IMG/VR virus record: IMGVR_UViG_3300045988_163275
Location: 32,001 to 96,000 of that record
Reading direction: 5' to 3' (one strand)
DNA: 64,000 nt
Origin: a virus
Taxonomy: Duplodnaviria; Heunggongvirae; Uroviricota; Caudoviricetes
Part shown: positions 1,163-55,426 of the stretch, piece after piece
Numbering within the stretch: the first letter of the stretch is position 1
Layout of the letters: each line of letters opens with the position of its first letter
The notes under the pieces: model-generated
Databases searched by the model: none
Seen by the model: only the letters and a program-made list of their open reading frames with translations
Told to the model about the DNA's origin: nothing
Position numbers and translations under genes: made by a program

Positions 1163-1182
1163 GATTAATTACTTATCGTAAA

Positions 1183-1216
1183 TAACAAATTGTTTTCTTG
1201 TTGGTGTTAATTATCG
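1183..1216 (-). promoter_or_regulatory. leader motif A copy (AACAAATTGTTTTCTTGTTGGTGTTAATTATC)
   Basis: conserved ~35-bp element 20 nt upstream of start of 680..1162. Confidence 0.5.
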
Positions 1217-1338
1217 TTGTACGAATAAGGCGTCAAAGTGGAAAGTTGCGGTAGCCGGACGGGAACAGGTGGGTTTGTCGGTTGCCTGGAGGTAAGAGGT
1301 TGGTGTTTTTAGCCTGCGGGAAACAGGATGGTCATTTA

Positions 1339-1360
1339 AGGCCACCAGCATTGGTGGCCT
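1339..1360 (-). terminator. stem-loop built from Chi-like octamers (GGCCACCAGC-A-TTGGTGGCC)
   Basis: 8-bp stem immediately 3' of stop of 1367..1654; contains CCACCAGC (Chi complement). Confidence 0.4.
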
Positions 1361-1366
1361 TACTCT

Positions 1367-1654
1367 TTAGTGGAGCAGACCGATGTCGATGGTATCCCCT
1401 GAATCATCCACACGGATCATCAGCATGGCGAAGGCGTTTAGTGGATAGCTTGCGTGCCATTCAGGGAAGCGGTCATCTCGCATGAAGTCGGCAATGTCGT
1501 AAACGCAGCCCTCAAAGTGGAAGAATCGCGTGCTTACCTGCTCGTCATATTCCACATGATCCATTTCTTGCTGTTCTGTTTCCGGCAAGTCCAGCCATGA
1601 TTCAAGGAATACATTTTGTGCTTTAGGGGTAATGGTGAAATCAGTCATGAGCAT
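1367..1654 (-). CDS. hypothetical small acidic protein (95 aa)
   Basis: track ORF 1367..1780 begins with TTG and covers motif A; first ATG with GAGGAT SD at 1652-1654 (MLMTDFTITPK...). Confidence 0.45.
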   Translation of the reverse strand: MLMTDFTITPKAQNVFLESWLDLPETEQQEMDHVEYDEQVSTRFFHFEGCVYDIADFMRDDRFPEWHASYPLNAFAMLMIRVDDSGDTIDIGLLH

Positions 1655-1667
1655 ATCCTCACTGCGT

Positions 1668-1700
1668 AAACATATTGTTTTCTTGTTGGTGTAATTATCG
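1668..1700 (-). promoter_or_regulatory. leader motif A copy
   Basis: CATATTGTTTTCTTGTTGGTGTAATTATC 14 nt upstream of ATG at 1654. Confidence 0.5.
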
Positions 1701-1810
1701 CAGTGTAGATAAGGCATAAAAGACGTTAATACAGGCTGAATACACAAGAAAGGTTCTGGAAGTTGATAGCCAGGTTTCAAACTAACCTTCGGTTATTAAA
1801 AGTCATTTAA

Positions 1811-1830
1811 GACCACCAATGCTGGTGGCC
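1811..1830 (-). terminator. stem-loop containing Chi octamer GCTGGTGG
   Basis: GACCACCA-ATGC-TGGTGGCC hairpin 3' of small ORF 1838..1981. Confidence 0.35.
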
Positions 1831-1837
1831 TTAATAA

Positions 1838-1981
1838 TTATCGCCCGATTACGCTAAGGATCTTTTCCTCAACTGATTTGTTGTTGCGACTAAACTGCCT
1901 TGCGTATCTTATGACAGAAGAGGCGTTTCGCTTTCTGACCATCTCGGCTCTCTCCTTCAGGCGTTTCTTGAAATCGCCCAT
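1838..1981 (-). CDS. hypothetical small basic protein (47 aa)
   Basis: ATG at 1979-1981, K/R-rich; not in ORF track (<60 aa); hand-translated. Confidence 0.25.
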   Translation of the reverse strand: MGDFKKRLKERAEMVRKRNASSVIRYARQFSRNNKSVEEKILSVIGR

Positions 1982-1983
1982 AT

Positions 1984-2358
1984 TTACCACCAGGCGCAGA
2001 AGGTCAGTCTATTATTGTGAAAGTCGTGGTTCTTAATCAGATCTTCCACAATCTCTTTCAACTCCCCCACATCATGCCAGTAACCTTCATCGTACTCCTG
2101 ACTGCCGAAGAAAAAACCTTCCTGGGTAGGCAAGTACTCTTCGCAATTACTTTCGTTTATGTGCATCAAATGAGCCTTCAGAAAACAAATGTCATTCATC
2201 GTTAATTCTAAAAGCTCACAATTTTCGACTTCACCTACGTTGCGCTCCATCCACCCAACGAGCGCATTGAACTTACGGAAGTAAGCAACCTGCTTTCTGG
2301 ATGCCTCGTTATTCAGATCGTTTTTTGGCTGCGTCTCGATGTAGATATCAAGCCCCAT
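1984..2358 (-). CDS. hypothetical protein
   Basis: track ORF 1984..2400 starts with GTG; internal ATG at 2356-2358 has AAGGAA SD (MGLDIYIETQ...); alternative ATG at 2392-2394. Confidence 0.45.
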   Translation of the reverse strand: MGLDIYIETQPKNDLNNEASRKQVAYFRKFNALVGWMERNVGEVENCELLELTMNDICFLKAHLMHINESNCEEYLPTQEGFFFGSQEYDEGYWHDVGELKEIVEDLIKNHDFHNNRLTFCAWW

Positions 2359-2416
2359 GATGGTTTCCTTATTAAGTTGCTTCAGTGAAATCATTTTCAC
2401 AAATCAGATAAGGCAG

Positions 2417-2440
2417 AAAACAAATTGTTATCGGGCATAA
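2417..2440 (-). promoter_or_regulatory. leader motif A copy (degenerate)
   Basis: GAAAACAAATTGTTATCGGGCATAAG upstream of 1984..2400. Confidence 0.35.
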
Positions 2441-2475
2441 GAAAATGGCGCGGGGTACGCGCCATTCAAAGAGGA

Positions 2476-2871
2476 TTAAGCGAATACGCTTTCAGGGACA
2501 ATGGTGTCGATCTTTTCGCCGGAGATTATTCGCAGACCGTGTTGTCCCATCCAGGTACTATTGGTATTTAAACTCGATGTATAAACCGCATCGACCTTTT
2601 TCATCAAATTTTCAAACAACGTCTGATCCGCGCCACGGAAATGAGTTTCCAGTTTTATCAGTAAAGGGTCAGAAGCATTACTGATGCTTTGGTAACGCAC
2701 CGAATATTTCCCCTTTGTCGCCTCGCCGGTGCGAGTTAAGGTACTGGTGTGAACTTCTTCGCCGGAGGCATTATCGCGTAGCACAATTGTAATTTTTGCA
2801 ACTTTGTCTCCATTTTCCGTCTCTGATGCATAATACATATCCAGGGTCAGATTTTCGCGTTTAACGGTCAT
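2476..2871 (-). CDS. hypothetical protein (131 aa)
   Basis: ATG at 2869-2871 with AAGGAGAG SD 5 nt upstream. Confidence 0.55.
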   Translation of the reverse strand: MTVKRENLTLDMYYASETENGDKVAKITIVLRDNASGEEVHTSTLTRTGEATKGKYSVRYQSISNASDPLLIKLETHFRGADQTLFENLMKKVDAVYTSSLNTNSTWMGQHGLRIISGEKIDTIVPESVFA

Positions 2872-2908
2872 TTCACTCTCCTTAGTGTTTAATTTTTAAT
2901 TTTATTAT

Positions 2909-2927
2909 CATAAGTAAGTACTTACAA
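2909..2927. promoter_or_regulatory. palindromic operator-like motif B copy (TAAGTAAGTACTTAC)
   Basis: palindrome core TAAGTACTTA, 38 nt upstream of ATG 2871. Confidence 0.5.
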
Positions 2928-2935
2928 TACAAAAA

Positions 2936-2962
2936 AGCCCCGAAGGATTGGCGGGGCTGTCG
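2936..2962 (-). terminator. rho-independent terminator
   Basis: minus strand GCCCCG-loop-CGGGGC followed by TTTTTT, just 3' of stop of 2993..3304. Confidence 0.6.
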
Positions 2963-2992
2963 TACATTCGACTAACTACTGCTTGCACATGT

Positions 2993-3304
2993 TTAAGCTA
3001 CCGCCTGAACAGACGCTCGTTGGATCTCTTGTTGGGCGACACGGTTGGCTTCCATCAGCGCCAGTTCAAGCTGGTCCTCTGGCCACATTTTCTGGACCGA
3101 CATCCACCCTCTTCCACGCTGGCGACGAACTACCATCACATAGCGCGTAAAATTGCCCGCGTCGAAGGTAATGGCTTTTTCACGAAACAGACGGATAGAA
3201 GTCCCATTCGCTACGATATCCAGCAATGTGAGATGCCCCATTAAGGTTGGTTTTTCTTTTCTATCCTGGCCTTCAGCAAGACCCAGCACCAATGAAGTAT
3301 TCAT
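2993..3304 (-). CDS. hypothetical protein (103 aa)
   Basis: ATG at 3302-3304 with GGAG SD; track ORF extends to 3334 over motif A. Confidence 0.5.
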   Translation of the reverse strand: MNTSLVLGLAEGQDRKEKPTLMGHLTLLDIVANGTSIRLFREKAITFDAGNFTRYVMVVRRQRGRGWMSVQKMWPEDQLELALMEANRVAQQEIQRASVQAVA

Positions 3305-3314
3305 CACCACTCCG

Positions 3315-3350
3315 TAAACAAATTGTTTTCTCAATGGCGTAAATAATACC
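3315..3350 (-). promoter_or_regulatory. leader motif A copy
   Basis: AAACAAATTGTTTTCTCAATGGCGTAAATAATAC 11 nt upstream of ATG 3304. Confidence 0.5.
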
Positions 3351-3464
3351 AGTGTAAAAACGGCTACAAAGCATATTGCTCAGGCACATGAATTATCTAA
3401 AGGTGGTTCTGCCCTGCGGCTACAGAGAAGTTAAGCCAGCAGGCGGTGCTGGCTTTGGTTGGGC

Positions 3465-3794
3465 TTACGCGAATAACTCAAGGAATTCCTGCACGTCCCA
3501 ATGCTGGACAAGGTGAAGATAGAGCTTAGAAATCACGTCATTCTCGCTATCGCATGTGAAGTAGTACTTCTGGCTGCGGTTGTATGTGTCCACACAAAAT
3601 TCGCTCATATCCATAAAGTCAGCATCTTCACCCATGTCGCAAATAATCAAAGCAGGAGCATCATCACGAGTCATCAGCTCAAGCACCCAGCGCGAATTGA
3701 TCAGCGTGGAAGACCAACCTTCTAACTCATAAAACTGGTCAAACTCTTTTTGAGTCATTTTCTTGATTTGGTTGATGTCGATATTTGCAAACAT
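3465..3794 (-). CDS. hypothetical protein (109 aa)
   Basis: ATG at 3792-3794 with AAGGAT SD; track ORF extends to 3860. Confidence 0.5.
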   Translation of the reverse strand: MFANIDINQIKKMTQKEFDQFYELEGWSSTLINSRWVLELMTRDDAPALIICDMGEDADFMDMSEFCVDTYNRSQKYYFTCDSENDVISKLYLHLVQHWDVQEFLELFA

Positions 3795-3806
3795 AAAGCA
3801 ATCCTT

Positions 3807-3840
3807 AAACATGTTGTTTTCTGAATTGCGTAAACAATAC
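3807..3840 (-). promoter_or_regulatory. leader motif A copy
   Basis: AAACATGTTGTTTTCTGAATTGCGTAAACAATAC upstream of 3794. Confidence 0.5.
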
Positions 3841-3933
3841 CAGTAAGAAAACGGCCACAAAGTATATCGTTACGGTGCTGCGCTGCCCCGGAGGTTAATA
3901 GCGACAAAAGCCACCGTGCTGGTGGTCTCACTC

Positions 3934-4152
3934 TTAATCTTCGTCGTCCGGGAACTCGCTGTGTACCGCGTCCACCAGCTCCCGCTTTTCATCTTCACTA
4001 AGCAGGTGCCAGATATCCTTCCCTTTGGGCGATTCCCCTTCTGCCGGGACGAACGACCACAACTTGCGGTACAACTCCGGCCCCACTGCATCCAGACACT
4101 CAGCCAGGGAATCCACGCCCCACACCTCAACCGTCACAGGCATCTTAATCAT
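3934..4152 (-). CDS. hypothetical acidic protein (72 aa)
   Basis: ATG at 4150-4152 with GAGGAT SD; preferred over overlapping low-complexity frame 3870..4130. Confidence 0.5.
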   Translation of the reverse strand: MIKMPVTVEVWGVDSLAECLDAVGPELYRKLWSFVPAEGESPKGKDIWHLLSEDEKRELVDAVHSEFPDDED

Positions 4153-4183
4153 CTCTTCATCCTCACTTCGTTTCTATAACGTC

Positions 4184-4218
4184 TAAATATGTTGTTTACT
4201 TGTTGGTGTTATTATCGC
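4184..4218 (-). promoter_or_regulatory. leader motif A copy
   Basis: AAATATGTTGTTTACTTGTTGGTGTTATTATCGC upstream of 4152. Confidence 0.5.
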
Positions 4219-4239
4219 AATAAGACAAAGGCGAAAAAG

Positions 4240-4700
4240 GATTTTATGTCGTGAAAGCCAGGCTGGGCAGTGAATATCCGGGAACGACACGGGAACCAGT
4301 ATTTACGATATTCTGCTCTACGCGCGCCGCAGGGCTGGTGGGCAGAATTTTCTTCTCCCCGAAAACCTACTGAAATCGCTTGAGACCCGAGGATGGTCTG
4401 GCAGACTGGAGTTCAGCAGCTGCACGAGAGGGAACGACACTCCCCCGCGATTTTCAGGCGAGTGAAGAGTAAGGCGCACTCCCGAAGATTTCCCGCACCG
4501 CTCCCGCAGTCGTCTCTCACTCTGTACCGGGATGTACCCGTTTCCCGACCGGCAGCCAGCCTTTTCCCGGTTCGTATAGCGAGATTCCCACCGTTTCCCT
4601 GAAAAACCTCCAGCCTTTTCCCTGCGGCGACGTTCCCGTTCCTGAAAAGGGACATGGCCTTTTCCCTGGATGGCCCGAAGGCTGACCGAAGGGGTGGATA
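4240..4700. repeat. cluster of GGGAAC / CCGTTTCCC / CCTTTTCCC short repeats (copy 2)
   Basis: CCGTTTCCCTGAAAAA ... CCTTTTCCCTGCGGC arrangement mirrors 540-640; ORF-free. Confidence 0.5.
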
Positions 4701-5560
4701 GGGACGTTACGGGGGATGAAAGCTATGGCTTGAATTTATACGAAGAAAGTGGCGATACCCCTCCTTCCCTTCCCACTTATACCTCCCACGAATTTTCTCT
4801 CTTATGTGGGCATAAATCTTCTCTCTGATAACGCTCAATACGGCGACTATTCCTGTGGGTGAAATGGGTGGTTTGTTCTTTCTACCGGCATATGTGGTTT
4901 CGTTCTTCTTGAGGTGGTTCTTCTCTGTGTTTTCGTCAGGGTTGTTCTCGTTGTTTTGGTGATTGTTCTTCTCTGTGTATGGAGTAATGGCAGGTGGGCG
5001 ATTCCTTTCGTTATTGTATTTGAGTTGTTTGTCTTGAGAGCGTGAAAGGCTTTTGTGGTTATTTGTGTATTGAGTAATGGCGTTTCCCCGCGAATGTTCT
5101 GTTTCGTGTCTTTGGGGATTGAGGGAGTCCTTGCGGTAACAGGCTTCGTTAGAGTTTCAGTGGTTCTGGTGTTTATTCGCTGTTTGGGGAATGGCGTGTA
5201 GTGGGTATCGCATGTATGAATGTTTCGAGTTGCCTGTGAAAGTTAGGTTGGTTGTCCGGTAGCCTGGGAAGAAGAGGTGGGTCTTTTCAGTAGCCTGCCA
5301 TAAAGAGGTTGGTTGTTTTTGGGAATGTGGGTAATGGCGTCTCTGGGTTTCCTGTGGGTGTGGTTAGCTTGTTTTCTTGTGTCTGAAAACAACTTGTTTA
5401 GATGTCCAATATAACGCAACGGGAGCGCTTCTGAGCGTGTCTGTTTTTGGGTGGTATCACGAGTCGTTTTTGACGTTTTGGTCGCAGGGAGATGGATTCT
5501 GGTACGCTGGATTTGGGTATAAGAGATGGCGTGCGAAAACATCAACTTTTTAGACCAAAT
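4700..5560. repeat. ORF-free region with extreme G+T strand bias and internal direct repeats
   Basis: plus strand almost entirely G/T; repeated (G)AGTAATGGCG at ~4983, 5073, 5186, 5329 and GTTCTTCTCTGTGT twice; track ORFs here are compositional artefacts. Confidence 0.5.
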
Positions 5561-5595
5561 CAGGGGAAAGCGTTGACTTTACGTTGATGTGTTAT

Positions 5596-5625
5596 TTATT
5601 TGTTTTCTTATGGGTGTAATTAGCT
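5596..5625 (-). promoter_or_regulatory. leader motif A-like copy facing the G+T-rich region
   Basis: TTATTTGTTTTCTTATGGGTGTAATTAGC; would direct minus-strand transcription into 4700-5560. Confidence 0.3.
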
Positions 5626-5741
5626 TAAATGCCTTGTCACGCCTGGGATTGAGTGGGGTAGGGTGGTGGGGAAAGTGGCGATCAACGGACTCTTATAGAA
5701 ATCCTCAATTTGTGACCGCCAATATCAACGAGTTGCAGCCG

Positions 5742-6311
5742 TTAGTTGTTCAGATAGGCATCCGGAACGCGCACATAAAAGTTTCTTTCGCCGGTCAGTT
5801 CCAGAGTAACGTTTATGTCGTTGCCGTTATCCAGCGTAGCCGTCGCTTTATAGAACTTGTCCGTCACCTTGTCCTGAATTGTCACCTTCATACATTTCGG
5901 CGCTGTGGTTCCGTTATTCTCTTTCAGAATGGTCGTTACGAGAGGACAAGCCGCTTCTTCAAGAGCAACCTCTTCCTGGTGTGGGATACCGATGAAGATG
6001 TTACCAGCAAGCAACGCGACGATTACGATAAAAGGAAGTCGACTGCCTTTTGTAACGGTGGCACGTTTCCAGAGATAGACCGGAAGGAGAAATACTCCCC
6101 ACAGGATGGCCGGTGGTTCATACCCTGCATCAGACAATGCCATTCTGTCAGCCACCAGAAAGCCGAGTCCAGCGACTCCACCTATCACTATTGCATAATT
6201 CAAATACTCATCTGGCGGTACTCCAAAGAAGAGAGGCAGTAAAGCTAGAAGCCACGCATAAGCATTATTCAGAGGTTTTGTTTGTTGGTTCTGGGTTTCC
6301 ATCACATCCAT
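5742..6311 (-). CDS. hypothetical integral membrane protein (189 aa)
   Basis: three hydrophobic helices (LLALLPLFFGV, VIGGVAGLGFLV, FIVIVALLAGNIFIG); ATG at 6309-6311. Confidence 0.5.
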   Translation of the reverse strand: MDVMETQNQQTKPLNNAYAWLLALLPLFFGVPPDEYLNYAIVIGGVAGLGFLVADRMALSDAGYEPPAILWGVFLLPVYLWKRATVTKGSRLPFIVIVALLAGNIFIGIPHQEEVALEEAACPLVTTILKENNGTTAPKCMKVTIQDKVTDKFYKATATLDNGNDINVTLELTGERNFYVRVPDAYLNN

Positions 6312-6387
6312 TCCATCAGATTAAAAAGCGGTACTATGTTACCAATTTTCTTCGCTTATATGACATGATTACTCAACGAGTGGGCGA

Positions 6388-6708
6388 TCACCATTCCCAT
6401 GCAGGTAGCCCATCCACCAGCTCGGCGTCGCAATCGAAGTGAACCACGTCAAAGCCGTCATCCAGTATGGTCTGTATGTTGGAGATCGCCTCTTGGGAAA
6501 TGCCGTACTCACGCAGTTCTTCCTTCCAGTCATTCCCTCGCATTCCAGCACGAACAATCCAGCCGTACTGTGTACCGTGTACCCAATTCAACCCGCGATC
6601 AGTAAGTGGGTCGAAGCAGGCAATGGGTAGCCGTTCTGAATCCGCTGCCGTGACGTGGGCGGTGCTGATCACCGCCGTCTTATACGATTCGGTGATTTTC
6701 AGCATCAT
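6388..6708 (-). CDS. hypothetical protein (106 aa)
   Basis: ATG at 6706-6708 with AAAGGAGAAGG SD; overlaps stop of upstream gene. Confidence 0.55.
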   Translation of the reverse strand: MMLKITESYKTAVISTAHVTAADSERLPIACFDPLTDRGLNWVHGTQYGWIVRAGMRGNDWKEELREYGISQEAISNIQTILDDGFDVVHFDCDAELVDGLPAWEW

Positions 6709-6941
6709 GCCTTCTCCTTTGGAAACAGAATGTTGGCCGTGTCAGAAATGACATCCCAATTCACGCCGACGCTGGCGTCATGGCACTCTTTGATTTTTCG
6801 CAAAACCTGAACGCACTGTTCGTCAGTCAGGTCTGGTCGCCCTTCACCTACATCTTCCTTGTGCCACATCACCATCAGCAGCGGCTCGTCTTCTGGGTAG
6901 TTCTCCAGCTTTTCGATAATTTCTTTCGCGGTTCCGAACAT
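6705..6941 (-). CDS. hypothetical protein (78 aa)
   Basis: track ORF starts TTG at 6959; ATG at 6939-6941 with AAGGAG SD 6 nt upstream. Confidence 0.5.
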   Translation of the reverse strand: MFGTAKEIIEKLENYPEDEPLLMVMWHKEDVGEGRPDLTDEQCVQVLRKIKECHDASVGVNWDVISDTANILFPKEKA

Positions 6942-6953
6942 GATTAACTCCTT

Positions 6954-6986
6954 AAACAATTTGTTTTCTTATTGGTATTATTATCT
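6954..6986 (-). promoter_or_regulatory. leader motif A copy
   Basis: AACAATTTGTTTTCTTATTGGTATTATTATC upstream of 6941. Confidence 0.5.
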
Positions 6987-7026
6987 CAAATAACGAAAGG
7001 CAGAAAACAAGATGTTTAAGGGATGA

Positions 7027-7293
7027 CTAGGTGAGTTTGAAGTCGTCTATGTCATCAACAAACTCCATATACCTGGCTTCGACACTCGACAATCTGATCA
7101 GATACGCAAGCCCGTAACTTAGTGAAGTGGGTTGCTCCAGCACAAATTCGAACCCATCCTCATGCGTTTTACCAAGCCAGAACCCCCCACCGTATTCTTT
7201 TTCACGTTGGAAGAAAACGAACTGTCCGGGTATTAGGTGCTTGAGTGCTTCGCCCCTATAGACGATCACATATTTAGAATTCTTGCTGCCCAT
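7027..7293 (-). CDS. hypothetical protein
   Basis: track ORF 7027..7350 starts TTG; ATG with GAGG SD at 7291-7293; start uncertain. Confidence 0.4.
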   Translation of the reverse strand: MGSKNSKYVIVYRGEALKHLIPGQFVFFQREKEYGGGFWLGKTHEDGFEFVLEQPTSLSYGLAYLIRLSSVEARYMEFVDDIDDFKLT

Positions 7294-7381
7294 TGCTCGC
7301 CTCGCAATACTGCACATATAAACAGTGGTATTTATTACGGTACTGGTCAACTTTACGGGTTAATTGAATAACAAGATGGTG

Positions 7382-7400
7382 AAAACAATTTGTTTTGGCG
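7382..7400. promoter_or_regulatory. leader motif A core in divergent intergenic region
   Basis: AAAACAATTTGTTTTGGCG between minus gene ending 7350 and plus gene at 7481. Confidence 0.35.
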
Positions 7401-7480
7401 CTTGAGATTTTGCAAATCGCACCTACATGGAAAACGGCAATTTTTGAAACCTGATTTGACCCATGTGAAAGGAGGAAACG

Positions 7481-7684
7481 ATGAAGACCTATGATCGCAA
7501 CCGTAACACTATCACTACCGGCAGCCGAGTGATGGTGGCAACGAATGGTGCAACGGGAGTCATCAAGGAAATCTGCGGAGAAGGCAAATCAGAAGAACAA
7601 TTACGCCGCTCTGACTGCGTGTCTATCGAAGGTGTGGAAGATCTGTTCTGCCCAATGGATTTAGTTCGCCTGGGATTCCAATAA
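7481..7684 (+). CDS. hypothetical protein (67 aa), plus strand
   Basis: ATG preceded by AAAGGAGGAAACG SD; isolated plus-strand gene. Confidence 0.5.
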   Translation: MKTYDRNRNTITTGSRVMVATNGATGVIKEICGEGKSEEQLRRSDCVSIEGVEDLFCPMDLVRLGFQ

Positions 7685-7698
7685 TTACACCACTAATT

Positions 7699-7712
7699 AA
7701 ACAAATTGTTTA
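7699..7712. promoter_or_regulatory. leader motif A core (partial)
   Basis: AAACAAATTGTTTA next to GGCCACAAATAATGGCC hairpin 7717-7738. Confidence 0.25.
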
Positions 7713-7739
7713 AGGCCACAAATAATGGCCTTATCTGGC

Positions 7740-8438
7740 TTACGGAACAGCAGTAATCAGATCGCAAATGCCTGTTTTAGTTAAATCACTATTTAGCTTC
7801 TGAAAATTGGCATTCAGCATTGCGGTATGTATTCGATTCTCAAGTTCAAAGAAGAGATCGATCTTGCCCTCTTTGGCTGCCACCTTCTTCCAAATATTCA
7901 CCTGGTCATCTGCGATACGACTTGCGCAGGTGAACAAGAACGAACTCCCTCTGGGAAGGGATGTCGTGCTGTAGTATTCACCGTCAACTTCAATATACTT
8001 AGCTCGGAATGACTCCAGAGTTAGCTTTTTACCGCTCTCAGCCTGCTTTGTGTCTGCCTTGCTTGTCTTTTCCTGAACTTCAGGCTGTTTCTGCACAGGC
8101 TTTGGTGTCTCATTGACCACCGCAGTGCTGGCCGAACCATCCAAACTCTTGAGGCCATTAATTTGGATTAGATAAGCCAACTCCAGAGTCTTATCACCAG
8201 TGAGTTTTCCACGCATACTTACCCATTGACGCTGAACCGTCTTTAAGGCGTCTGCGTCCCCCGGGTTTGCTTTGAGTGCGTTGGAATAGGTAGAGCTAAG
8301 TTGTTCGTCTAATTTTGACAGGCGTTCGTTATCGCAGATTTTGTGTTCGATTTCTGCCGAAGCCTTTTGGCAGTCAAAGCTGGCTGCAAATACAGCCGGC
8401 GATGCCACCAACAATGATGCCAGTAGGATATTTTTCAT
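7740..8438 (-). CDS. secreted protein with LprI/DUF1311-like N-terminal domain
   Basis: signal peptide MKNILLASLLVASPAVFA; FDCQKASAEIEHKICDNERLSKLDEQL pattern; ATG 8436-8438 with GGAG SD (track ORF starts at GTG 8444). Confidence 0.6.
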   Translation of the reverse strand: MKNILLASLLVASPAVFAASFDCQKASAEIEHKICDNERLSKLDEQLSSTYSNALKANPGDADALKTVQRQWVSMRGKLTGDKTLELAYLIQINGLKSLDGSASTAVVNETPKPVQKQPEVQEKTSKADTKQAESGKKLTLESFRAKYIEVDGEYYSTTSLPRGSSFLFTCASRIADDQVNIWKKVAAKEGKIDLFFELENRIHTAMLNANFQKLNSDLTKTGICDLITAVP

Positions 8439-8476
8439 ATTCACTCCATAAATATAAAAGCGCCTGACTATAGCAC

Positions 8477-8692
8477 TTAACCGATTGCTTCTCTCATCTG
8501 ATTGTGAAGCTCTTTCAGCCCATTACGTACCGCGTTCATGATACGTTCCAGGTATTGGTATCTGGGGTTTGGCACCGTTGGCCAACCGGCATACCACGGA
8601 TCGTCACCAAACAGACTCAGCAGTTCGTTACCGACACCGAAACAGCAGCAACTTTCTTTTACGTCATCAGCGTTTTCTGCCTCGTCCCACAT
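8477..8692 (-). CDS. hypothetical protein (71 aa)
   Basis: ATG at 8690-8692; reading frame stays open ~23 codons upstream without a start. Confidence 0.35.
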   Translation of the reverse strand: MWDEAENADDVKESCCCFGVGNELLSLFGDDPWYAGWPTVPNPRYQYLERIMNAVRNGLKELHNQMREAIG

Positions 8693-8738
8693 ATTGCGGG
8701 CCTGCTCTGCGTCGATTTCTCTCTCTCCCTGCGCAACT

Positions 8739-8978
8739 TTATGATTTCGGATTTGACGAAAAGCAGGTTTGCGTCGTTGTCATCGTCGACCGTACTGAAG
8801 TGGCACACTGAATTTGGCCGTCTGTAATGGGCAGATCCGGCAACTGTTTAAAAACTTCCATCTGCTCATGGATACGCAGAAACCACCTTGCCAGCTCCAT
8901 CTGCTCACCGCGGGTGAGGGGATTATTCAGCGGGGACTTAACAAAAGCGGAGACTCGCTCGACAAGCAGATCATTCAT
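8739..8978 (-). CDS. hypothetical protein (79 aa)
   Basis: ATG at 8976-8978 overlaps TGA of upstream gene (ATGA coupling). Confidence 0.35.
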   Translation of the reverse strand: MNDLLVERVSAFVKSPLNNPLTRGEQMELARWFLRIHEQMEVFKQLPDLPITDGQIQCATSVRSTMTTTQTCFSSNPKS

Positions 8979-9664
8979 GCCGCGCACCTCTCTGCTTTCT
9001 CCTGCAATTCGCGAACGAACTCGACCAAAGAGCCACCTGGCGGGATCTGGCATTCCTCAACCAACTGGAAGTATATGTCTGCGGCCGCGCGTGTGTTCGA
9101 GCCTTTGTTTAGCTGCTCTTCGCGCAGCGCATCACGTTCATTAATCAAACGGACGCACTCGCCGTTACGCTGATCCACAACGGCCTCAAGTTCAGCGATA
9201 CGTTCGCCAGGAGTCTTACCTTCTTTACGTTGAATGGTGACGGTAAACTCACCCATTTCAGGAACGTCGTACCCCAGCTCCAGGTAGTTTCTGGCCCCGC
9301 TACGAACAAACTCACCGGCAAACATGGTTGCGAACATCGCAGAGGCCATTTCACCTTTAAACAGAGACTCCAAATCTAACGGAGTACCCGCAGCCAGAGC
9401 CGTTTTTTCTGTATCAATTGCAGACATGAATGCATCAAATTCACGAGCACGTTTTTCCAGGTCTCTCCATTGCTCGCTCCAACGTTTAGCAACGAAGTCT
9501 ATGAATGTTTTCGCGGATTCATCATAATCCCCTTCAAACTTAACAGTGCCTTTGTCAATGATGATCTGGTCTACTGCTTCCTCTGCATAACCTCTCATTA
9601 CAAATTTGAAAGGAAAGTCGGCATGGCTTTTGACGTTAAAACGCTCTAACGGAAGATTGCTCAT
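8975..9664 (-). CDS. hypothetical protein (229 aa)
   Basis: ATG at 9662-9664; no recognisable motif. Confidence 0.5.
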   Translation of the reverse strand: MSNLPLERFNVKSHADFPFKFVMRGYAEEAVDQIIIDKGTVKFEGDYDESAKTFIDFVAKRWSEQWRDLEKRAREFDAFMSAIDTEKTALAAGTPLDLESLFKGEMASAMFATMFAGEFVRSGARNYLELGYDVPEMGEFTVTIQRKEGKTPGERIAELEAVVDQRNGECVRLINERDALREEQLNKGSNTRAAADIYFQLVEECQIPPGGSLVEFVRELQEKAERCAA

Positions 9665-9705
9665 GTGTTTTTTCTCTTATCATATAGTCACTATATTCTT
9701 ACATA

Positions 9706-9728
9706 GATTAGGTAAGTATTTACCTCTC
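9706..9728. promoter_or_regulatory. palindromic motif B copy
   Basis: GATTAGGTAAGTATTTACCTCTC between genes. Confidence 0.5.
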
Positions 9729-11412
9729 ATTTAACGCGTTTAAAAACGTATACGCTGACAGTAATCCCGGTGTCTTCAAACATGTTAGTAAACGACTTCC
9801 CTTTGGCATAAACGTAATTATCCAGCGTCATCCAGTTTAGAATTGGCGCGTCGCCCGGCAGCACTGCTACCAGACGCCCACCGACTTTCAGATGTCCCAG
9901 CGCGGCCAACGTGTGCTCTCTGTGACGGCCAAGAGAGTAGGGCGGGTTCATGACGATTTTGTCGAACTGATAACCTGCGTTGTCCTCAGACCACTTCATG
10001 AAGTCGCAGCAGACCGTATTTGTGTACCCCTTGCCAAGCAGGATATCAGCGAAGAGAGGTGCGACTTCTATGCAGGTAACGTCTTCCGGATTGGCGTCGA
10101 TGCAGGCCAGCAGATCTCCGCGCCCGGCTTCAGGCTCCAGCAGCTTCTCACCTGGCTTCAGCTCGATGGCTCTGGCAACGTACTCCGCTATCAAACGCGG
10201 GGTAGGGTAGAACTGGTGTGATTTTGTATCCGGTATTAAGCCGGTGGCCACAATCGTATTGAGCGTATGGCCGATCTCATACGGGAACTGCCAGTGCTTG
10301 TTCTCCTGCACGCCGCCAATAAAGCTCAGTGTACGCTCCAGCTCTTCCACCTGTGACTTCTGAAGACCGGAATCAGAGAAGTACCATACGCGTTTGTCAT
10401 TGCCAGATCGCCCGTCGCGAAGCGCAGTACGCACCGGCTCGGAGATCGTCTTCTGGATTAACCCGAACTGTTTTGGTGCCCGTGTTTTGGGCGCAGTACG
10501 ACATGGAGCCGGGATTGCAGCGGGCATACTGTAAGCCAGCACCTCATTCAGCTTCCAGGCTACGTCAGGATGTATTTCAAAGTGAACGTTGCCGTTCTTA
10601 AACATCTTCACACGCATCAGGTTTCCGTCGACATTCATCCAGTCGCCGGTCTGGCAGTCATTTGCTCGATACGCAGCTGACAGCATCTCGGCCGTGCGGT
10701 TGATGGTGATAAATTCTTTGTGTGCAAAGAAATGCAACATGACGCGCAGGTCGTCTATGTAATCCTCTTTCCGGTAGTTAACGCTGACGCTGTCCCGCCA
10801 GAAATCGGAAATGCAGTCGGCGATGATCAGACGCTCGCTGAAGCCGTTCGTCTTATTGGTCTTGTGAGCAGGACTCAACGCCTTAAACAAGCCATACACG
10901 CGCTCAGAGAGATATTTGTGCCTGTCATTCAGCAAATTAAGCATCGTTGGTATGACCGTTTCTGCTTTGAACTCAGGTACACCAACGAACTCTTTAACCT
11001 TCATTTGATAGCCAGTTCTGTCAGTCTTGATCGTTTCCTGCTTGCCCTCGATAAACTGTTCACGCCACTCGTCGCGGCGGGATGCTGGCATGATCAGCAG
11101 AACGTTGGTCATATCCGTGACCTTCTTCCAGTACTCGGCCCAGATATTTTGTTTCACCCATTCCAGGTCGACTTTGTCCAGCCAGGTTCTGTTAAAGCGT
11201 GTGCGCTCGTCGTCCGGCCGGTGGTTAAGTCGCAGTAGACGGTTAATCATGTTGTGGCGTTCGTCGCCATAAACGAAGTCGTGAACCTTATTCATGAACG
11301 CAATCTCTTTCTCGCATTCGGCCACAATTTCGTGGATAACATTCATTTCCTGCCGGTAGTCAATACCGGTGTCTGGAGTGATAGAGTCAATGATGGAAAG
11401 GGCTGTATTCAT
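9727..11412 (-). CDS. putative amino-methyltransferase (likely DNA N6-adenine) with large N-terminal domain of unknown function
   Basis: C-terminal FYPTP ... LEPEAGRGDLL ... VMNPPYS motifs (AdoMet motif I then NPPY); ATG 11410-11412 (track ORF starts TTG 11430). Confidence 0.55.
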   Translation of the reverse strand: MNTALSIIDSITPDTGIDYRQEMNVIHEIVAECEKEIAFMNKVHDFVYGDERHNMINRLLRLNHRPDDERTRFNRTWLDKVDLEWVKQNIWAEYWKKVTDMTNVLLIMPASRRDEWREQFIEGKQETIKTDRTGYQMKVKEFVGVPEFKAETVIPTMLNLLNDRHKYLSERVYGLFKALSPAHKTNKTNGFSERLIIADCISDFWRDSVSVNYRKEDYIDDLRVMLHFFAHKEFITINRTAEMLSAAYRANDCQTGDWMNVDGNLMRVKMFKNGNVHFEIHPDVAWKLNEVLAYSMPAAIPAPCRTAPKTRAPKQFGLIQKTISEPVRTALRDGRSGNDKRVWYFSDSGLQKSQVEELERTLSFIGGVQENKHWQFPYEIGHTLNTIVATGLIPDTKSHQFYPTPRLIAEYVARAIELKPGEKLLEPEAGRGDLLACIDANPEDVTCIEVAPLFADILLGKGYTNTVCCDFMKWSEDNAGYQFDKIVMNPPYSLGRHREHTLAALGHLKVGGRLVAVLPGDAPILNWMTLDNYVYAKGKSFTNMFEDTGITVSVYVFKRVK

Positions 11413-11423
11413 GATTGCACCAT

Positions 11424-11456
11424 TAAACAAATTGTTTTCTTATTGGTGTTATTTTC
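11424..11456 (-). promoter_or_regulatory. leader motif A copy
   Basis: TAAACAAATTGTTTTCTTATTGGTGTTATTTTCTC upstream of 11412. Confidence 0.5.
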
Positions 11457-11513
11457 TCAAAGCTAAAAAGGCGTAAAAGCAGCATTCACAGGCGTTGCAG
11501 CTGATTTAAGACG

Positions 11514-11536
11514 TAAAAAGGGGGCTTTCGTCCCCT
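11514..11536 (-). terminator. rho-independent terminator
   Basis: minus strand GGGGACGAAAGCCCCC followed by TTTTT, 3' of stop of 11553..12125. Confidence 0.6.
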
Positions 11537-11552
11537 GTACGCAGGTGAGAGA

Positions 11553-12125
11553 TTAGTGGTGTACGTGCTGCGTTTTGTACGGCTGTTTGTTCAGGTTGTG
11601 GCGGTGCATAAGCTCGCGCATCATGTCTTCAAGACGGCTCTTGGTGTCGTCAAGCTGGTCGGCCATTGCCCCCAGCAGCTGGCGAAGGGCCATCGGATCG
11701 TCGCTGTTCAGCTCAGGCATTTTGAACCCAGCCTGGGAAGACATCAGTTTGAAAGCGGCCAGCAACATCGCCAGAGAAGACTTCAGCCCGGCGATTTCAT
11801 GATCTTTGCTGGCGTTGGTTTCATCTGCCTTGACTGAATCCAGTGAGCACTTCGGCTTGCTTACCATTTCCAGAGTTGCCTGAAGTTTGTCGGCGCGTTC
11901 TTTCTCTTCCAGATACGCTTCGCCGAAATGACGCGCCAGCATCACAATTTCAATCGGATCATCAATCATGCTTGAGAACTTGAGAACGCTGAAAAGGCGG
12001 TCAATAGGGGAGGCGTCGTCTTCGTGACCAACCACAAGACCCATGATCTCAACCAGTTCGGCCGCACCAACTTTTTTAATCACGCTTTCAACTTTGGCAT
12101 TAGTTTTTTTGCATTTTTCACACAT
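11553..12125 (-). CDS. hypothetical protein (190 aa)
   Basis: ATG 12123-12125 with AAGGAAG SD. Confidence 0.5.
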   Translation of the reverse strand: MCEKCKKTNAKVESVIKKVGAAELVEIMGLVVGHEDDASPIDRLFSVLKFSSMIDDPIEIVMLARHFGEAYLEEKERADKLQATLEMVSKPKCSLDSVKADETNASKDHEIAGLKSSLAMLLAAFKLMSSQAGFKMPELNSDDPMALRQLLGAMADQLDDTKSRLEDMMRELMHRHNLNKQPYKTQHVHH

Positions 12126-12144
12126 GTGTTCTTCCTTATGCTTT

Positions 12145-12178
12145 TAAACAAGTTGTTTTCTTAATTGTTTAATTGTCT
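12145..12178 (-). promoter_or_regulatory. leader motif A copy
   Basis: TTTTAAACAAGTTGTTTTCTTAATTGTTTAATTG upstream of 12125. Confidence 0.45.
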
Positions 12179-29045: not shown

Positions 29046-29077
29046 CAGCGCTTGCGGTTACTGGCTTGAGAAGGGGT

Positions 29078-29183
29078 TACTATCCACTATAGGGAGCAAA
29101 ATAACCACTGTAGAGAGCATAATAACCGCTATGAAGAGCAAAACAACCTCTCTGGAGAGTAGTCGGTATCCACTGTAGTGAGT
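29078..29183 (+). repeat. iteron cluster A (5 direct repeats, ~21-bp period)
   Basis: consensus (A)TAACCACTGTAGAGAGT at ~29078, 29099, 29119, 29140, 29165. Confidence 0.8.
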
Positions 29184-29345
29184 AGGAGACAATGTTTTAA
29201 CTGGATAACTCCGAGCCTGTTTTTCTGCGGCAGATGGCTGATATTCTTGGAAATATTGTAAATTTTGCGTTGCGGCGTGTTTATTTCGATCACACATTAT
29301 CCCCAGAAGGGGAGTGATGCCTGATTTTGTAATTATCTGATTTTT

Positions 29346-29416
29346 ATACACAGGCCCGATCCAGTAATTCAGATCCCTGTTAGAACCAAAGAGAACCACA
29401 AAGACCCAAAGAGATC
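29346..29416. promoter_or_regulatory. GATC-rich origin-like element, unit 2
   Basis: second copy of CACAGGCCCGATCCA-N-AGATCCC plus GAGATCC. Confidence 0.5.
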
Positions 29417-29461
29417 CCCGGACCCTGCAAACCGTTGTGCCACATGGCTTTAGAGGTTATC

Positions 29462-29585
29462 GATATCCACTATAGCGAGAATAACAACCACTATGGAGAG
29501 TAAATCAACCACTATGGAGAGTAGAAAAACCGCTGTAGGCGGTAGGATAACCACTGTGATGGGTGCTACTATCCACTGTAATCAG
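29462..29585 (+). repeat. iteron cluster B (6 direct repeats) immediately upstream of repA
   Basis: six ~19-bp repeats at ~22-bp spacing ending 40 bp before repA ATG. Confidence 0.8.
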
Positions 29586-29625
29586 TAAAGGCACCCAAGC
29601 CGTCGAATAAAAAGAGACATTTGGA

Positions 29626-30681
29626 ATGAGCGTAAACGACAATAAAAACATTGCGATAAGCGAAGCATTTTCCGAAACAGACAAAAAGACCGGCGAAGTT
29701 GTTACGTTAGTTCCTAACACCAACAACACAGTTCAGCCTGTTGCTCTGATGCGTCTTGGTCTCTTCGTTCCGACGCTGAAATCGACATCCAGGGGTAGAA
29801 AGGGGCAAATGGTCTCTATGGACGCCTCCGCTGAACTCAAACAGCTGTCTCTGGCCAAAGCCGAAGGGTACGAGGATATAAGGATTGCTGGTCTTCGTCT
29901 TGATATGGATAACGATTTCAAAACATGGGTGGGCATCATCCACGCGTTCGCCAAGCACAAGGTTGTTGGTGACACCGTCACGTTGCCGTTCGTCGAGTTC
30001 GTCAGACTTTGTGGCATACCAACAGCCAGATCGTCCGCGAAGTTACGTAAGCGCCTGGACAGCTCTCTAAGTCGTATCGCCACAAACACCATCTCATTCC
30101 GCAGCAAAGGCTCTGAAGAGTATTACGTTACGCACCTTGTGCAGACGGCAAAGTACAGTACCAAGAATGACACGGTCGAACTGAAGGCCGATCCTAAGAT
30201 TTTCGAACTTTACCAGTTCGACAAAAAGGTGCTTTTGCAACTTCGGGCCATCAACGAACTCTCCAGAAAGGAATCCGCGCAGGCGCTCTACACCTTCATT
30301 GAAAGTTTGCCACCAGACCCGGCGCCAATCTCATTGGCTCGCTTACGCGCCAGACTTAACTTAACCAGCCGCACCATTACCCAGAATGCGACAGTCAGGA
30401 AGGCGATGGAGCAACTGCGAGAGATCGGCTATCTCGATTACACTGAAGTGAAACGCGGCAGCTCGGTCTACTTCGTCATCCACTATAGACGGCCGAAGTT
30501 ACGTTCGGCACTGCCGCCATCTATGGCCACGCCTGAAGATCCAGAAGATATCTTGCCAGGTGATGATCCGGAGGACATTATCGATGTTGCTCCTGAAGAA
30601 AAAGACGGGGAAATGGTCATGTTGAGCAAGGAAGAACTGGCGATTCTCGAAGAGCTGCGCAAGGCAAAGGCTCGCAAATAG
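29626..30681 (+). CDS. repA: plasmid replication initiator RepA (iteron-binding)
   Basis: flanked on both sides by iterons; [61 protein letters not shown] blocks resemble P1-type RepA as I recall it. Confidence 0.8.
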
Positions 30682-31247: not shown

Positions 31248-31250
31248 TTA

Positions 31251-55399: not shown

Positions 55400-55426
55400 T
55401 AGAATTCCCTTGTTGTTAAAACAATT

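Follow-up and report, generated by a model that had tools for sequence, protein, structure and literature searches.

The question raised by this locus is why DNA that holds no conserved gene should be composed, on one strand, predominantly of G and T. The locus lies at 4700–5560 of the window, by which we mean the whole 64-kb stretch of DNA that was analysed and which is an SSU5-like phage-plasmid. A literature search found no paper that describes this region, the lytic origin of SSU5 or its operators, and a 2026 preprint on the copy number of phage-plasmids deals with another family.

A conserved non-coding block with an extreme strand bias

4153–5741, no strand assigned: whole conserved non-coding block of 1.6 kb, unannotated in RefSeq, matched in PLSDB and lacking a conserved ORF
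4853–5725, minus strand: C-rich, G-poor and structure-poor leftward RNA, corresponding to the G+T-rich stretch of the plus strand that constitutes the finding itself (from composition, folding and relatives)

Base counts of the plus strand give a G+T content of 66.2% at 4700–5560 and 73.3% in the core at 4860–5380 (A 71, C 68, G 170, T 212). The peak value over 300 nt is 74.7%, approximately 6 standard deviations from the 64-kb window mean of 50.4% (sd 3.9), and in a scan of the 64 kb all 300-nt segments above 66% or below 34% G+T start between 4761 and 5311. The extreme bias reported in the initial annotation is thus real, correctly placed and unique in the 64 kb, but its description of the strand as almost entirely G and T is an overstatement because ~27% of the bases are A or C. 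The right limit of the skewed zone is located at ~5725, beyond the 5560 given there. Read as leftward RNA, 4853–5725 is an 873-nt run with C at 0.31 and G at 0.14, the longest C-rich/G-poor run in the window (defined as C of at least 28% and G of at most 16%), the second longest on the minus strand being 204 nt. Predicted folding energy of this RNA is −0.095 to −0.16 kcal/mol per nt, compared with a window mean of −0.267 (sd 0.044), placing its foldability far below that of every control segment. Relative to shuffled sequence, folding energies on both strands across the block gave z values of −1.6 to +1.1, with no structured-RNA signal.

SSU5-like phage-plasmids occur frequently among clinical Klebsiella, E. 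coli, Enterobacter and Salmonella, and 858 enterobacterial plasmid records in PLSDB, from at least six genera, match 4153–5741 at 72–99% identity. The G+T bias is retained in all clades, with core G+T ranging from 0.62 to 0.82 along its length in 20 non-redundant relatives, and conservation in relatives, which the initial annotation had proposed as a check, is thereby confirmed. Skew is present even at ~5012–5257, where clades no longer align; its retention without alignable sequence argues for a constraint on one strand. The substitution spectrum, in which G<->T changes make up 28% in the core vs 12% in the left part, was dropped as a test of composition selection and is not counted as evidence because low-complexity misalignment could give the same pattern.

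The block is bordered on the left by a conserved gene (3934–4152, minus strand) and on the right by a variable accessory gene (5742–6311), with every flanking gene on the minus strand. In all relatives compared, the block ends on the right at ~5730–5741 and different genes lie beyond; its conservation is 68–85% vs 74–90% for neighbouring genes in the same relatives. In L007, the neighbouring cargo is on the opposite strand and the block is still kept. A defence island has carried the right part of the block with it into other plasmids, and this part is a breakpoint of exchange. Pfam and PHROGs searches left all flanking proteins with function unknown, except for a DUF5983 match. Replication genes are present on the element, at least 13 kb from the block, as are the packaging genes. 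One canonical Chi site is present in the block (4334–4341) and zero in the skewed core, compared with 20 across the window vs 1.4 expected; a Chi hotspot was rejected, the enrichment being window-wide and absent from the skewed core.

Mechanical ORFs of 43–100 aa exist in the stretch, so that the term ORF-free, applied to it initially, is literally untrue; the accompanying view that these ORFs are artefacts holds, none being conserved. They are disrupted in most of the 20 non-redundant relatives, among which an excess of third-codon-position substitutions is absent, and alignment gaps occur in multiples of three in 38 of 175 cases (22%). A protein-coding gene was rejected on these frame breaks, gap lengths and substitution pattern.

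Probable leftward transcription and conserved hairpins

4172–4238, minus strand: functional-looking leader of gene 3934–4152, with an extended −10 promoter (TGCGATAAT) and operator; conservation 0.94
5580–5626, minus strand: conserved leader-like motif followed by no ORF, with a degenerate −10 (GCTAAT) without TG extension and half an operator palindrome (from leader alignment)
5677–5720, minus strand: conserved stem-loop without U-tract, 22 nt past the upstream gene's stop codon (from folding of variants)
5645–5676, minus strand: 32 nt of leftward RNA lacking any G (CUUUCCCCACCACCCUACCCCACUCAAUCCC), immediately downstream of the stem-loop (read from sequence)
4727–4776, minus strand: hairpin with a purine-rich and a pyrimidine-rich arm, stem 4742–4767, where the C-rich zone ends (from folding of variants)
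1163–1366, minus strand: smaller spacer of the same layout, comprising stop codon, hairpin without U-tract, C-rich stretch with 30-bp units and the next leader promoter

The leader-like sequence that the initial annotation had seen pointing into the region is one of a 9-copy family lying within the first 13 kb, every member of which is in minus orientation and thus points leftward; its own −10 is degenerate. No good fit to the sigma-70 consensus was detected anywhere in the block by promoter scan. Leftward is the transcription direction best supported by context, based on the flanking genes, the leader motifs and the two conserved hairpins. The earlier proposal of leftward transcription is supported by the minus orientation of all flanking genes and by both hairpins, which are predicted to be more stable in minus than in plus RNA in most or all variants.

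The stem-loop at 5677–5720, in which 5677–5684 pairs with 5713–5720 to form the outer stem, has a predicted stability of −13 to −21 kcal/mol in 49 of 49 variants. Its 8 outer pairs are never broken, two natural single changes still pairing on minus RNA, and its inner helix takes three alternative paired forms. On the minus strand one of the pairs is G.U, which would become A.C on the plus strand. The adjoining G-free run at 5645–5676 is, from its sequence, a candidate primary Rho-loading site; in relatives its sequence varies and is still pyrimidine- and C-rich. Its plus strand is a G-quadruplex-capable run that contains GGGTAGGG.

The 4742–4767 hairpin is observed in 28 of 28 distinct variants, with a mean of −12.4 kcal/mol in minus RNA vs −7.4 in plus RNA, and its arms differ between clades. 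It is followed by GUAUAAAUUC in this window and by GUAUUUAUUC in many relatives, and a terminator scan flagged it in the relative Cyrano and left it unflagged in this window. Intrinsic terminators are defined by a G+C-rich hairpin that leads straight into a U-tract. As modelled, the 4742–4767 hairpin may represent a weak, intrinsic-terminator-like back-stop.

Possible Rho-type termination and insulation

We tentatively favour the possibility that the block is a Rho-type termination and insulation zone for leftward transcription, a reading that follows from the C-rich, G-poor and unfolded nature of the leftward RNA. Both the involvement of Rho and selection for insulation are inferences. The 3' ends that Dar and Sorek (2018, PMC6061677) mapped as Rho-dependent in E. 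coli carry a stable stem-loop without U-tract followed by an excess of C over G. Three features by which Rho-dependent terminators are recognised are seen here: an untranslated RNA segment of ~80 nt or more in which C clearly exceeds G, provided by the 873-nt run; little structure in the putative loading region, as predicted from folding energy; and a stable stem-loop without U-tract just before the candidate loading site, at 5677–5720, an element that in mapped terminators marks the steady-state 3' end (PMC6061677). The layout is repeated by the smaller spacer at 1163–1366, in which C is 0.33 and G 0.14 between 1183 and 1348.

RNA-seq of Cyrano lysogens from GSE154648, covering one relative at gene level with strandedness unstated, gave 45–590 FPKM for the upstream gene CYRAN_102 and 0–14 FPKM for CYRAN_103, the equivalent of ~5240–5620 here. 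Together with the lack of a good promoter, of predicted RNA structure and of an Rfam match, these lysogen data agree better with transcription followed by termination or degradation than with a stable non-coding RNA gene.

The mechanism would operate as follows. RNA polymerase would run out of the last accessory gene past the stop codon at 5742, ribosomes would fall off, and the stem-loop without U-tract would fold at 5677–5720. The 32 G-free nucleotides would emerge, followed by ~800 nt of C-rich, G-poor, unfolded RNA, and since such RNA is open to Rho, the factor could load, overtake the polymerase and release it. Exonucleases would shorten the RNA tail back to the stem-loop. Polymerases starting at weak leader-like sites inside the block would produce the same type of RNA and meet the same fate, with the 4742–4767 hairpin as back-stop. 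The zone lies where the variable accessory-gene hotspot, to its right, meets the conserved, repressor-controlled early genes to its left, and these early genes would then run only from their own operator-controlled promoters, whatever cargo the hotspot holds.

Several observations count against Rho-type termination. The block is conserved in sequence about as strongly as the neighbouring genes, although Rho loading needs composition only; its ~870 nt are several times the length of known Rho-loading sites; and it is kept beside the opposite-strand cargo of L007. In addition, termination offers no reason for the conserved 27-nt motif, the 30-bp units, the RTCAACG boxes or the phased TTTCCC array described below.

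Repeats, operators and alternative explanations

4541–4672, no strand assigned: array of six to seven CCAGCC(G/T)TTTCCC(G/T) repeats in 22-bp phase, in the same block and outside the coordinates reported initially
4916–4978, plus strand: 24-nt tandem repeat of 2.6 copies, unit GGTTCTTCTCTGTGT / GGTTCTTCTCTGTGTTTTCGTCAG (from tandem-repeat detection)
4963–5339, plus strand: four copies of a ~27-nt motif, GTTCTTCTC(C/T)GTGTATGGAGTAATGGC(R), ending at 4992, 5082, 5196 and 5339 (from repeat and motif search)
5229–5313, plus strand: three tandem 30/31-bp units, GTAGCCTG-N7-GAGGTGGGT (from repeat and pattern search)
5387–5399, no strand assigned: perfect copy of the operator palindrome AAACAACTTGTTT, family D6, away from any gene start and invariant in relatives
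5534–5583, no strand assigned: inverted repeat CGAAAAC(A/G)TCAAC ... GTTGACTTT(A/T)CG, family I8, at least 90% conserved (from repeat search)

The 27-nt motif is the best-conserved island of the core. GTAATGGC(A/G) or GGAATGGCG occurs at 4984, 5074, 5188 and 5331, all on the plus strand, and a fifth, weaker copy of the motif ends near 5531 on the same strand. Relatives contain 2–5 exact matches to the motif core (4–5 in most) in one orientation and at similar spacing. The motif was not found elsewhere in the element, and no antisense partner was detected in the 64-kb window or in 50 kb more of the element. Resemblance to a type I-F CRISPR repeat extends to ~13 of 28 positions; mimicry of a CRISPR repeat was rejected, as the hairpin is lost in other copies and no Rfam CRISPR-DR model matched. 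The 30/31-bp pattern has five matches in the window vs 0.11 expected, two of them outside the block at 1251–1335 and followed by a third, weaker copy, and both boxes of the unit are at least 90% conserved. Five RTCAACG boxes, also at least 90% conserved, extend from 5538 to 5730 and include the inverted repeat, which holds two back-to-back −35-like TTGAC hexamers; the promoter-like sites located there are weak and conserved on both strands (18 of 20 and 14 of 20 relatives). The operator palindrome is present at 13 sites in the window vs 0.4 expected, 12 of them within 1.1–12.2 kb, and the copy at 5387–5399 lies beside a second leader-like remnant at 5348–5370. The 22-bp phasing of the 4541–4672 array is retained in all clades, with a TT/TTT periodicity of 10.9 bp that exceeds the 95th percentile of shuffles; no helical periodicity was found in the skewed core.

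These repeats bear most directly on a somewhat unlikely alternative, that the block acts in cis as DNA and presents an array of sites for proteins, for instance a lytic replication origin, a site for partition or silencing, or some other assembly platform, with the strand skew arising as a side-effect of asymmetric sites that all face the same direction. Consistent with this are sequence conservation at the level of coding genes, the regular copies of the 27-nt motif, the two arrays of 30/31-bp units with two conserved boxes each, the phased TTTCCC repeats with their significant periodicity and the five RTCAACG boxes and inverted repeat around an AT-rich segment at 5590–5630. No RNA was detected at gene level in Cyrano lysogens, and the element has its own replication genes and no described lytic origin. 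However, the skew extends into inter-motif spacers and unalignable parts, where binding sites would not need it, and the spacing of motif copies differs by non-helical amounts (135 vs 143). DnaA boxes are absent, and the distance to replication and packaging genes also argues against an origin. Specific candidates of this type failed. An iteron or copy-control array of the oriR or incA type was rejected, since the sequence of the RepA iterons at 29.07–31.25 kb, TATCCACTGTAGTGAGT, bears no relation to the block motifs, and a partition site was rejected because no repeats are common to the block and the ParA-like locus. R-loop-forming zones have ~40% G or more on the non-template strand over at least 100 nt, and such an origin zone was rejected with plus-strand G at 32.6% in 4860–5380. 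Cumulative skew was rejected as an origin signal, as it tracks gene direction, gene orientation being dominant. The alternative raised by the initial annotation, a protein-binding or recombination region, may apply, given the conserved sequence-specific motifs and the movement of the right part of the block with the defence island into other plasmids.

That the block is a genuine gene for a non-coding RNA is unlikely. The product would be CA-rich, unfolded and ~0.8 kb long and would appear only upon induction or infection, starting at the leader-like or inverted-repeat promoters near 5510–5610 and ending at the 4742–4767 hairpin. It would act in trans, perhaps as a decoy that binds a single-strand RNA-binding factor (Rho, for instance) or by pairing with other RNAs. 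The leader-like motif and early-regulon operators at the upstream end fit this proposal, and as a result silence in lysogens would be expected. The position of a conserved hairpin exactly at the end of the C-rich zone, with a U-rich tail in many clades, is also in agreement, and the repeated, conserved motifs could be RNA recognition sites. Nevertheless, no candidate promoter has a good −10, the RNA itself would be an ideal Rho substrate and a search of the 64 kb and of 50 kb more of the element gave no complementary partner of the motifs. CA-rich sponge RNAs bind the distal face of Hfq through (ARN)n and AAYAAYAA; here these do not exceed the composition expectation, and an Hfq/Crc-type sponge was rejected on counts equal to those of shuffles. 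Rfam 15, including its CRISPR repeat families, gave no match at gathering score, the sole match at E<=5 being a human lncRNA model, by chance. The CA-rich non-coding transcript suggested initially is therefore unsupported in a stable form, given 0–14 FPKM in Cyrano lysogens, the lack of a good promoter, the unstructured nature of the RNA and the absence of an Rfam match.

A related proposal, which we regard as quite unlikely, is that a structure-free, CA-rich RNA of ~0.8 kb in the lytic phase, or equivalent exposed single-strand DNA, uses the conserved motifs to recruit a phage or host single-strand-binding factor. It may be an RNA decoy titrating Rho or another RNA-binding protein in lytic growth, or a single-strand replication/recombination element. 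If true, this would be a phage regulator of a kind so far undescribed.

It is decidedly improbable that the block is a relic of evolution, made up of decayed leaders (promoter plus operator) whose genes have been lost, and serves at most as homology for cargo exchange. The leader itself is G+T-rich on the plus strand (~69% in the functional leader, counted by eye), leader-like remnants are present at 5580–5626 and 5348–5405, and isolated operator half-sites, TTGTTTT(C/G), occur at 4951, 5313, 5369 and 5600. Repeat families D6, D12 and D19 connect core segments with the leader, and exchange with other plasmids uses the right part of the block as a breakpoint. Unconstrained DNA should not align at this clade divergence, yet most of the block aligns, the 858 records from at least six genera speak against decay, and the top conserved motif, GGAGTAATGGC, is not part of the leader.

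Least credible, to the point of near dismissal, is a series of tiny plus-strand peptides of 16–26 aa started at the ATGGC of the repeated motif after a purine-rich run: five ATG GC(G/A) starts each lie behind GGAG, GGGG or GGGT and two of the peptides are alike within the closest clade, but the GGAG-to-ATG gap is only 2 nt (read from sequence), lengths and frames vary between clades, the conserved part is upstream of the ATG, the conserved 'ENNLF' is the DNA operator and gaps show no 3-nt pattern, so that these peptides were rejected on the same frame breaks, gap lengths and substitution pattern as a longer gene.

Significance and comparison with known systems

The hotspot beside the block carries defence, virulence and resistance cargo. 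Insulation by the block, if real, would account for the exchange of widely different cargo without disturbance of the phage early programme, and the block would then be a natural model of a Rho-loading zone that is unusually long and clean. Should the motifs mark an origin, a binding platform or a lytic-phase RNA instead, the SSU5-like family would gain its first defined cis or RNA element.

Dispersed operator regulons of plasmid prophages are exemplified by the P1 C1 operators and by the N15 centromere sites inside phage control regions. As in these systems, one palindromic operator is found over many early-region promoters and also inside the block; it differs in covering only ~13–40 bp of the block and not the skewed 0.8 kb. 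Iteron-type origins, represented by lambda ori and P1 oriR/incA, resemble the 4541–4672 array in its 22-bp phasing and helical periodicity, within a region that is non-coding and conserved. In contrast to these origins, the block repeats are unlike the element's own RepA iterons, no motif being common to the block and either the iterons or the par locus, no initiator gene or DnaA boxes are nearby and the skewed core lacks helical periodicity. CrcZ and CrcY of Pseudomonas are CA-rich protein-sponge RNAs, long, A- and C-rich, weakly structured and containing repeated short motifs, all properties that the predicted block RNA would share; it differs in that AAnAAnAA and (ARN)n are not enriched, no stable RNA is observed in Cyrano lysogens and a good promoter is lacking.

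For Rho-type termination, the comparison cases are lambda tR1, the Rho-based silencing of prophage genes and the E. coli terminators in which Rho loads past a protective stem-loop. E. coli and phage Rho-dependent terminators extend over roughly 80–100 nt, whereas the block is ~870 nt long, strongly conserved in sequence and furnished with repeated motifs, and its use of Rho is putative. Shared with these terminators is untranslated RNA of little predicted structure, with C in excess of G, directly after a stable stem-loop without U-tract (PMC6061677). An apparent loss of RNA signal past the stem-loop, at gene level in Cyrano lysogens, is in line with them, as is a placement that would keep read-through out of the prophage lytic genes.

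Conservation of a non-coding block in SSU5-type phage-plasmids

The region matches SSU5-type phage-plasmids. Its identity is 99% with the E. coli plasmid NZ_CP010244.1 (IncFIB, non-mobilizable), 90% with Salmonella phage SSU5 and ∼80% with Escherichia phage Cyrano. A 1.6 kb block at 4153-5741 containing the skewed stretch, without annotation in RefSeq, separates two minus-strand genes, a small gene at 3934..4152 and a gene at 5742..6311, and lies ∼25 kb from repA and its iterons (28.9-31.3 kb). Iterons of the TATCCACTGTAGTGAGT type, numbering more than 20 and in both orientations, are found on either side of repA at 29070-31250, an arrangement resembling a P1-like oriR/incA layout. A tRNA-Asn (GTT) gene is also carried by the phage-plasmid (61429-61503, minus strand).

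By sensitive BLAST, 858 PLSDB records contain the block at 72-99% identity, their hosts being Klebsiella, Escherichia, Enterobacter, Salmonella, Citrobacter and Cronobacter, at least 80% of the block being covered in 674 of the 858, and the majority of matching records are unannotated over it. Block identity is similar to that of flanking genes within the same relatives, for example 74% and 79% vs 74% for the gene in a Klebsiella relative. In an alignment of 20 non-redundant sequences out of 55 full-length copies, IMG/VR contigs included, 38 of 175 gaps are divisible by three. Mechanical ORFs are present, the longest of 100 aa, and, as suspected, none is upheld on comparison with relatives. 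The feature is both real and conserved, and it is undescribed. In the SSU5 clade, the leader promoter is separated from the remaining block by an extra 240-bp segment (SSU5 locus L001, 7537-7850; inserted at window position ∼4224), which holds a small plus-strand ORF, SSU5_110.

Composition and anatomy

The G+T bias of the plus strand is real and located where first described, but 'almost entirely G and T' overstated it, as G+T amounts to 66.2% over 4700-5560 and 73.3% over the core at 4860-5380. The top 300-nt window reaches 74.7% vs a window-wide mean of 50.4% (sd 3.9), and all 300-nt outliers across the 64 kb are located in this stretch. Leftward (minus-strand) RNA of 4853-5725 forms the longest C-rich/G-poor run of the window (873 nt, C 0.31, G 0.14), the second-longest on the minus strand being 204 nt, and is predicted to be much less foldable than every control window. 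Neither strand of the block was found to fold better than shuffled sequence, and Rfam gave no RNA family match for it. The repeats named initially are present, and the leader-motif-like sequence noted near 5596-5625 is one of nine leader copies, all in minus orientation.

Features of the block, in leftward order
5742, minus: stop codon of the upstream gene
5677-5720, minus: conserved extended stem-loop without a U-tract, -13 to -21 kcal/mol in 49/49 variants
5645-5676, leftward RNA: G-free run of 32 nt
5580-5626, minus: leader-like motif with a degenerate -10, member of the nine-copy family
5534-5583: inverted repeat with two back-to-back TTGAC hexamers
5387-5399: exact match to the operator palindrome of the early region, a second leader remnant adjoining
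5229-5313: three 30/31-bp units, GTAGCCTG-N7-GAGGTGGGT
4-5 copies, always plus: 27-nt motif ending in GTAATGGC(R), spacing similar across clades
4916-4978: tandem repeat, 24-nt unit
4742-4767: hairpin of a purine and a pyrimidine arm, at the exact end of the skew
4541-4672: TTTCCC repeat array, 22-bp phase, 10.9-bp periodicity
4334-4341: Chi site
4172-4238, minus: functional-looking leader of the next gene

In the stem-loop at 5677-5720, the inner helix exists as three distinct paired versions while the outer 8 pairs are unbroken throughout, two natural single changes preserving pairing on minus RNA. The hairpin at 4742-4767 is present in 28/28 variants, with a mean of -12.4 kcal/mol on minus RNA vs -7.4 on plus RNA; a terminator scan is positive for it in Cyrano and negative in the window. 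The plus strand of 5645-5676 reads GGG-N7-GGGG-N2-GGG-N4-GGGG, predicted to be G-quadruplex-capable, and includes GGGTAGGG, a match to the FtsK-orienting KOPS consensus, the run being only partly retained in relatives.

Conservation among relatives is at least 90% for the 27-nt motif, the 30-bp units and the RTCAACG boxes, none of which was found elsewhere in the element, except for a second 30-bp array. The two arrays of three 30/31-bp units (1251-1335 and 5229-5313) each occupy a C-rich intergenic spacer of the leftward early region. At the RNA level, the sequence of these units is ACCCACCUCUU, with a likeness to the 16S rRNA 3' end, and the units are complementary in part to the purine arm (4759-4775). 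The array at 4541-4672 comprises six to seven CCAGCC(G/T)TTTCCC(G/T) repeats with a TT periodicity of 10.9 bp, kept in all clades; it resembles iterons or a centromere but bears no relation to the iterons of RepA.

There are 13 copies of the palindrome AAACAANTTGTTT vs 0.4 expected, 12 at 1183-12158 and one at 55419. They usually have an extended -10 promoter (TGnGATAAT) on one side and the ribosome-binding site of a small minus-strand gene on the other, and together look like the operator set of a single repressor over the early small-gene region. A second palindrome, TAGGTAAGTACTTACCTA, occupies 13 places at 9709-62258 (25 strand matches vs 0.02 expected), with zero sites within the first 9 kb, and probably marks a second regulon spanning replication and other genes. 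Over the 64 kb, both strands together carry 20 canonical Chi sites, GCTGGTGG, vs 1.4 expected (for example at 467, 636, 1342, 1821, 3918, 3972, 4334 and 6414), several of them lying within GGCCACCAGC...GCTGGTGGCC-type hairpins between genes.

Cargo exchange at the right end

Left-flank genes are common to the relatives fetched with their flanks, whereas right-flank genes change: a 189-aa protein, a 396-aa protein, an opposite-strand DUF262 gene or small ORFs adjoin the block, with Ivy lysozyme inhibitor or metG slightly beyond its right edge in some. The right limit of the block is constant in the fetched relatives (∼5730-5741). The part at 5257-5735 is also present in large non-phage Klebsiella plasmids, where it immediately precedes an island of DUF262 plus type I restriction-modification genes; in L086 6001-6462 and L087 6001-6460, from plasmids of 143-204 kb, the right 480 bp are all that is present of the block. 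The same island comes after the block in the Klebsiella phage-plasmid L007, and the block is therefore a junction for cargo exchange. The right end may also carry a rightward promoter, TTGACT-16-TTTATT, conserved in 14/20 relatives.

Direction of transcription and expression

Neighbouring genes and leader copies are all on the minus strand, and in both conserved hairpins G.U pairs on minus RNA would be A.C mismatches on plus RNA. Core G+T ranges from 0.62 to 0.82 throughout the 20 relatives, the bias being retained even at ∼5012-5257, where BLAST fails to align some clades. A strand-specific bias which outlasts sequence conservation is most simply explained by a constraint acting on one strand only, namely the RNA.

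The sole expression data found are from lysogens of Cyrano, the LF82 phage-plasmid, in a re-analysis of GSE154648 with featureCounts, strandedness not stated (PMC9928086). CYRAN_102, adjoining the block upstream, gives log2(FPKM+5) of 5.6-9.2, or 45-590 FPKM (PMC9928086). CYRAN_103, an artefactual ORF equivalent to ∼5240-5620, gives 2.32-4.27 (0-14 FPKM; the two LB replicates are both zero), and CYRAN_104, an artefactual ORF in the left part of the block, gives 6-20 FPKM (PMC9928086). At gene level, therefore, RNA appears not to build up over the block in Cyrano lysogens, even though transcription reaches its edge. Outside the block, CYRAN_43 (Cyrano record 40268-40822, function unknown), which adjoins the integrase and repressor genes, is expressed at ∼700 times the prophage background in LF82 lysogens.

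Interpretation

At the right end, a stop codon is followed by a stable stem-loop that lacks a U-tract, beyond which C exceeds G. This corresponds to the model of Dar and Sorek for Rho-dependent 3' ends in E. coli, in which termination is diffuse downstream and the transcript is trimmed back to a stem-loop (PMC6061677). The same layout is observed in the shorter spacer at 1163-1366, with a stop codon, a hairpin, ∼150 nt of C 0.33/G 0.14 holding the 30-bp units, and the next leader promoter. Combined, these two layouts lead us to suggest, tentatively, that the skewed stretch is an extended zone of Rho-type termination and of insulation. Such a zone would block transcription of swappable cargo from entering the conserved early genes, each of which has its own extended -10 promoter and operator, and would likewise keep transcription from weak internal starts out of them.

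A Rho-loading site requires composition alone, whereas most of the block is conserved at the sequence level. The conserved motifs, beyond any need of composition, and the TTTCCC array, helically phased like protein-binding arrays, therefore keep a DNA-level element, such as a lytic origin or other binding platform, as a serious if unlikely rival. A lytic-phase non-coding RNA with the motifs as recognition sites is a further serious though still less probable rival, its chief weakness being the absence of a good -10 from every candidate promoter. Part of the core resembles decayed leader units, which may explain the origin of the skew but not its retention. On the most likely reading, the feature is a lengthened form of an already known type of terminator zone in which further motifs are embedded; it would be of greater interest should those motifs turn out to mark an origin or a trans-acting RNA.
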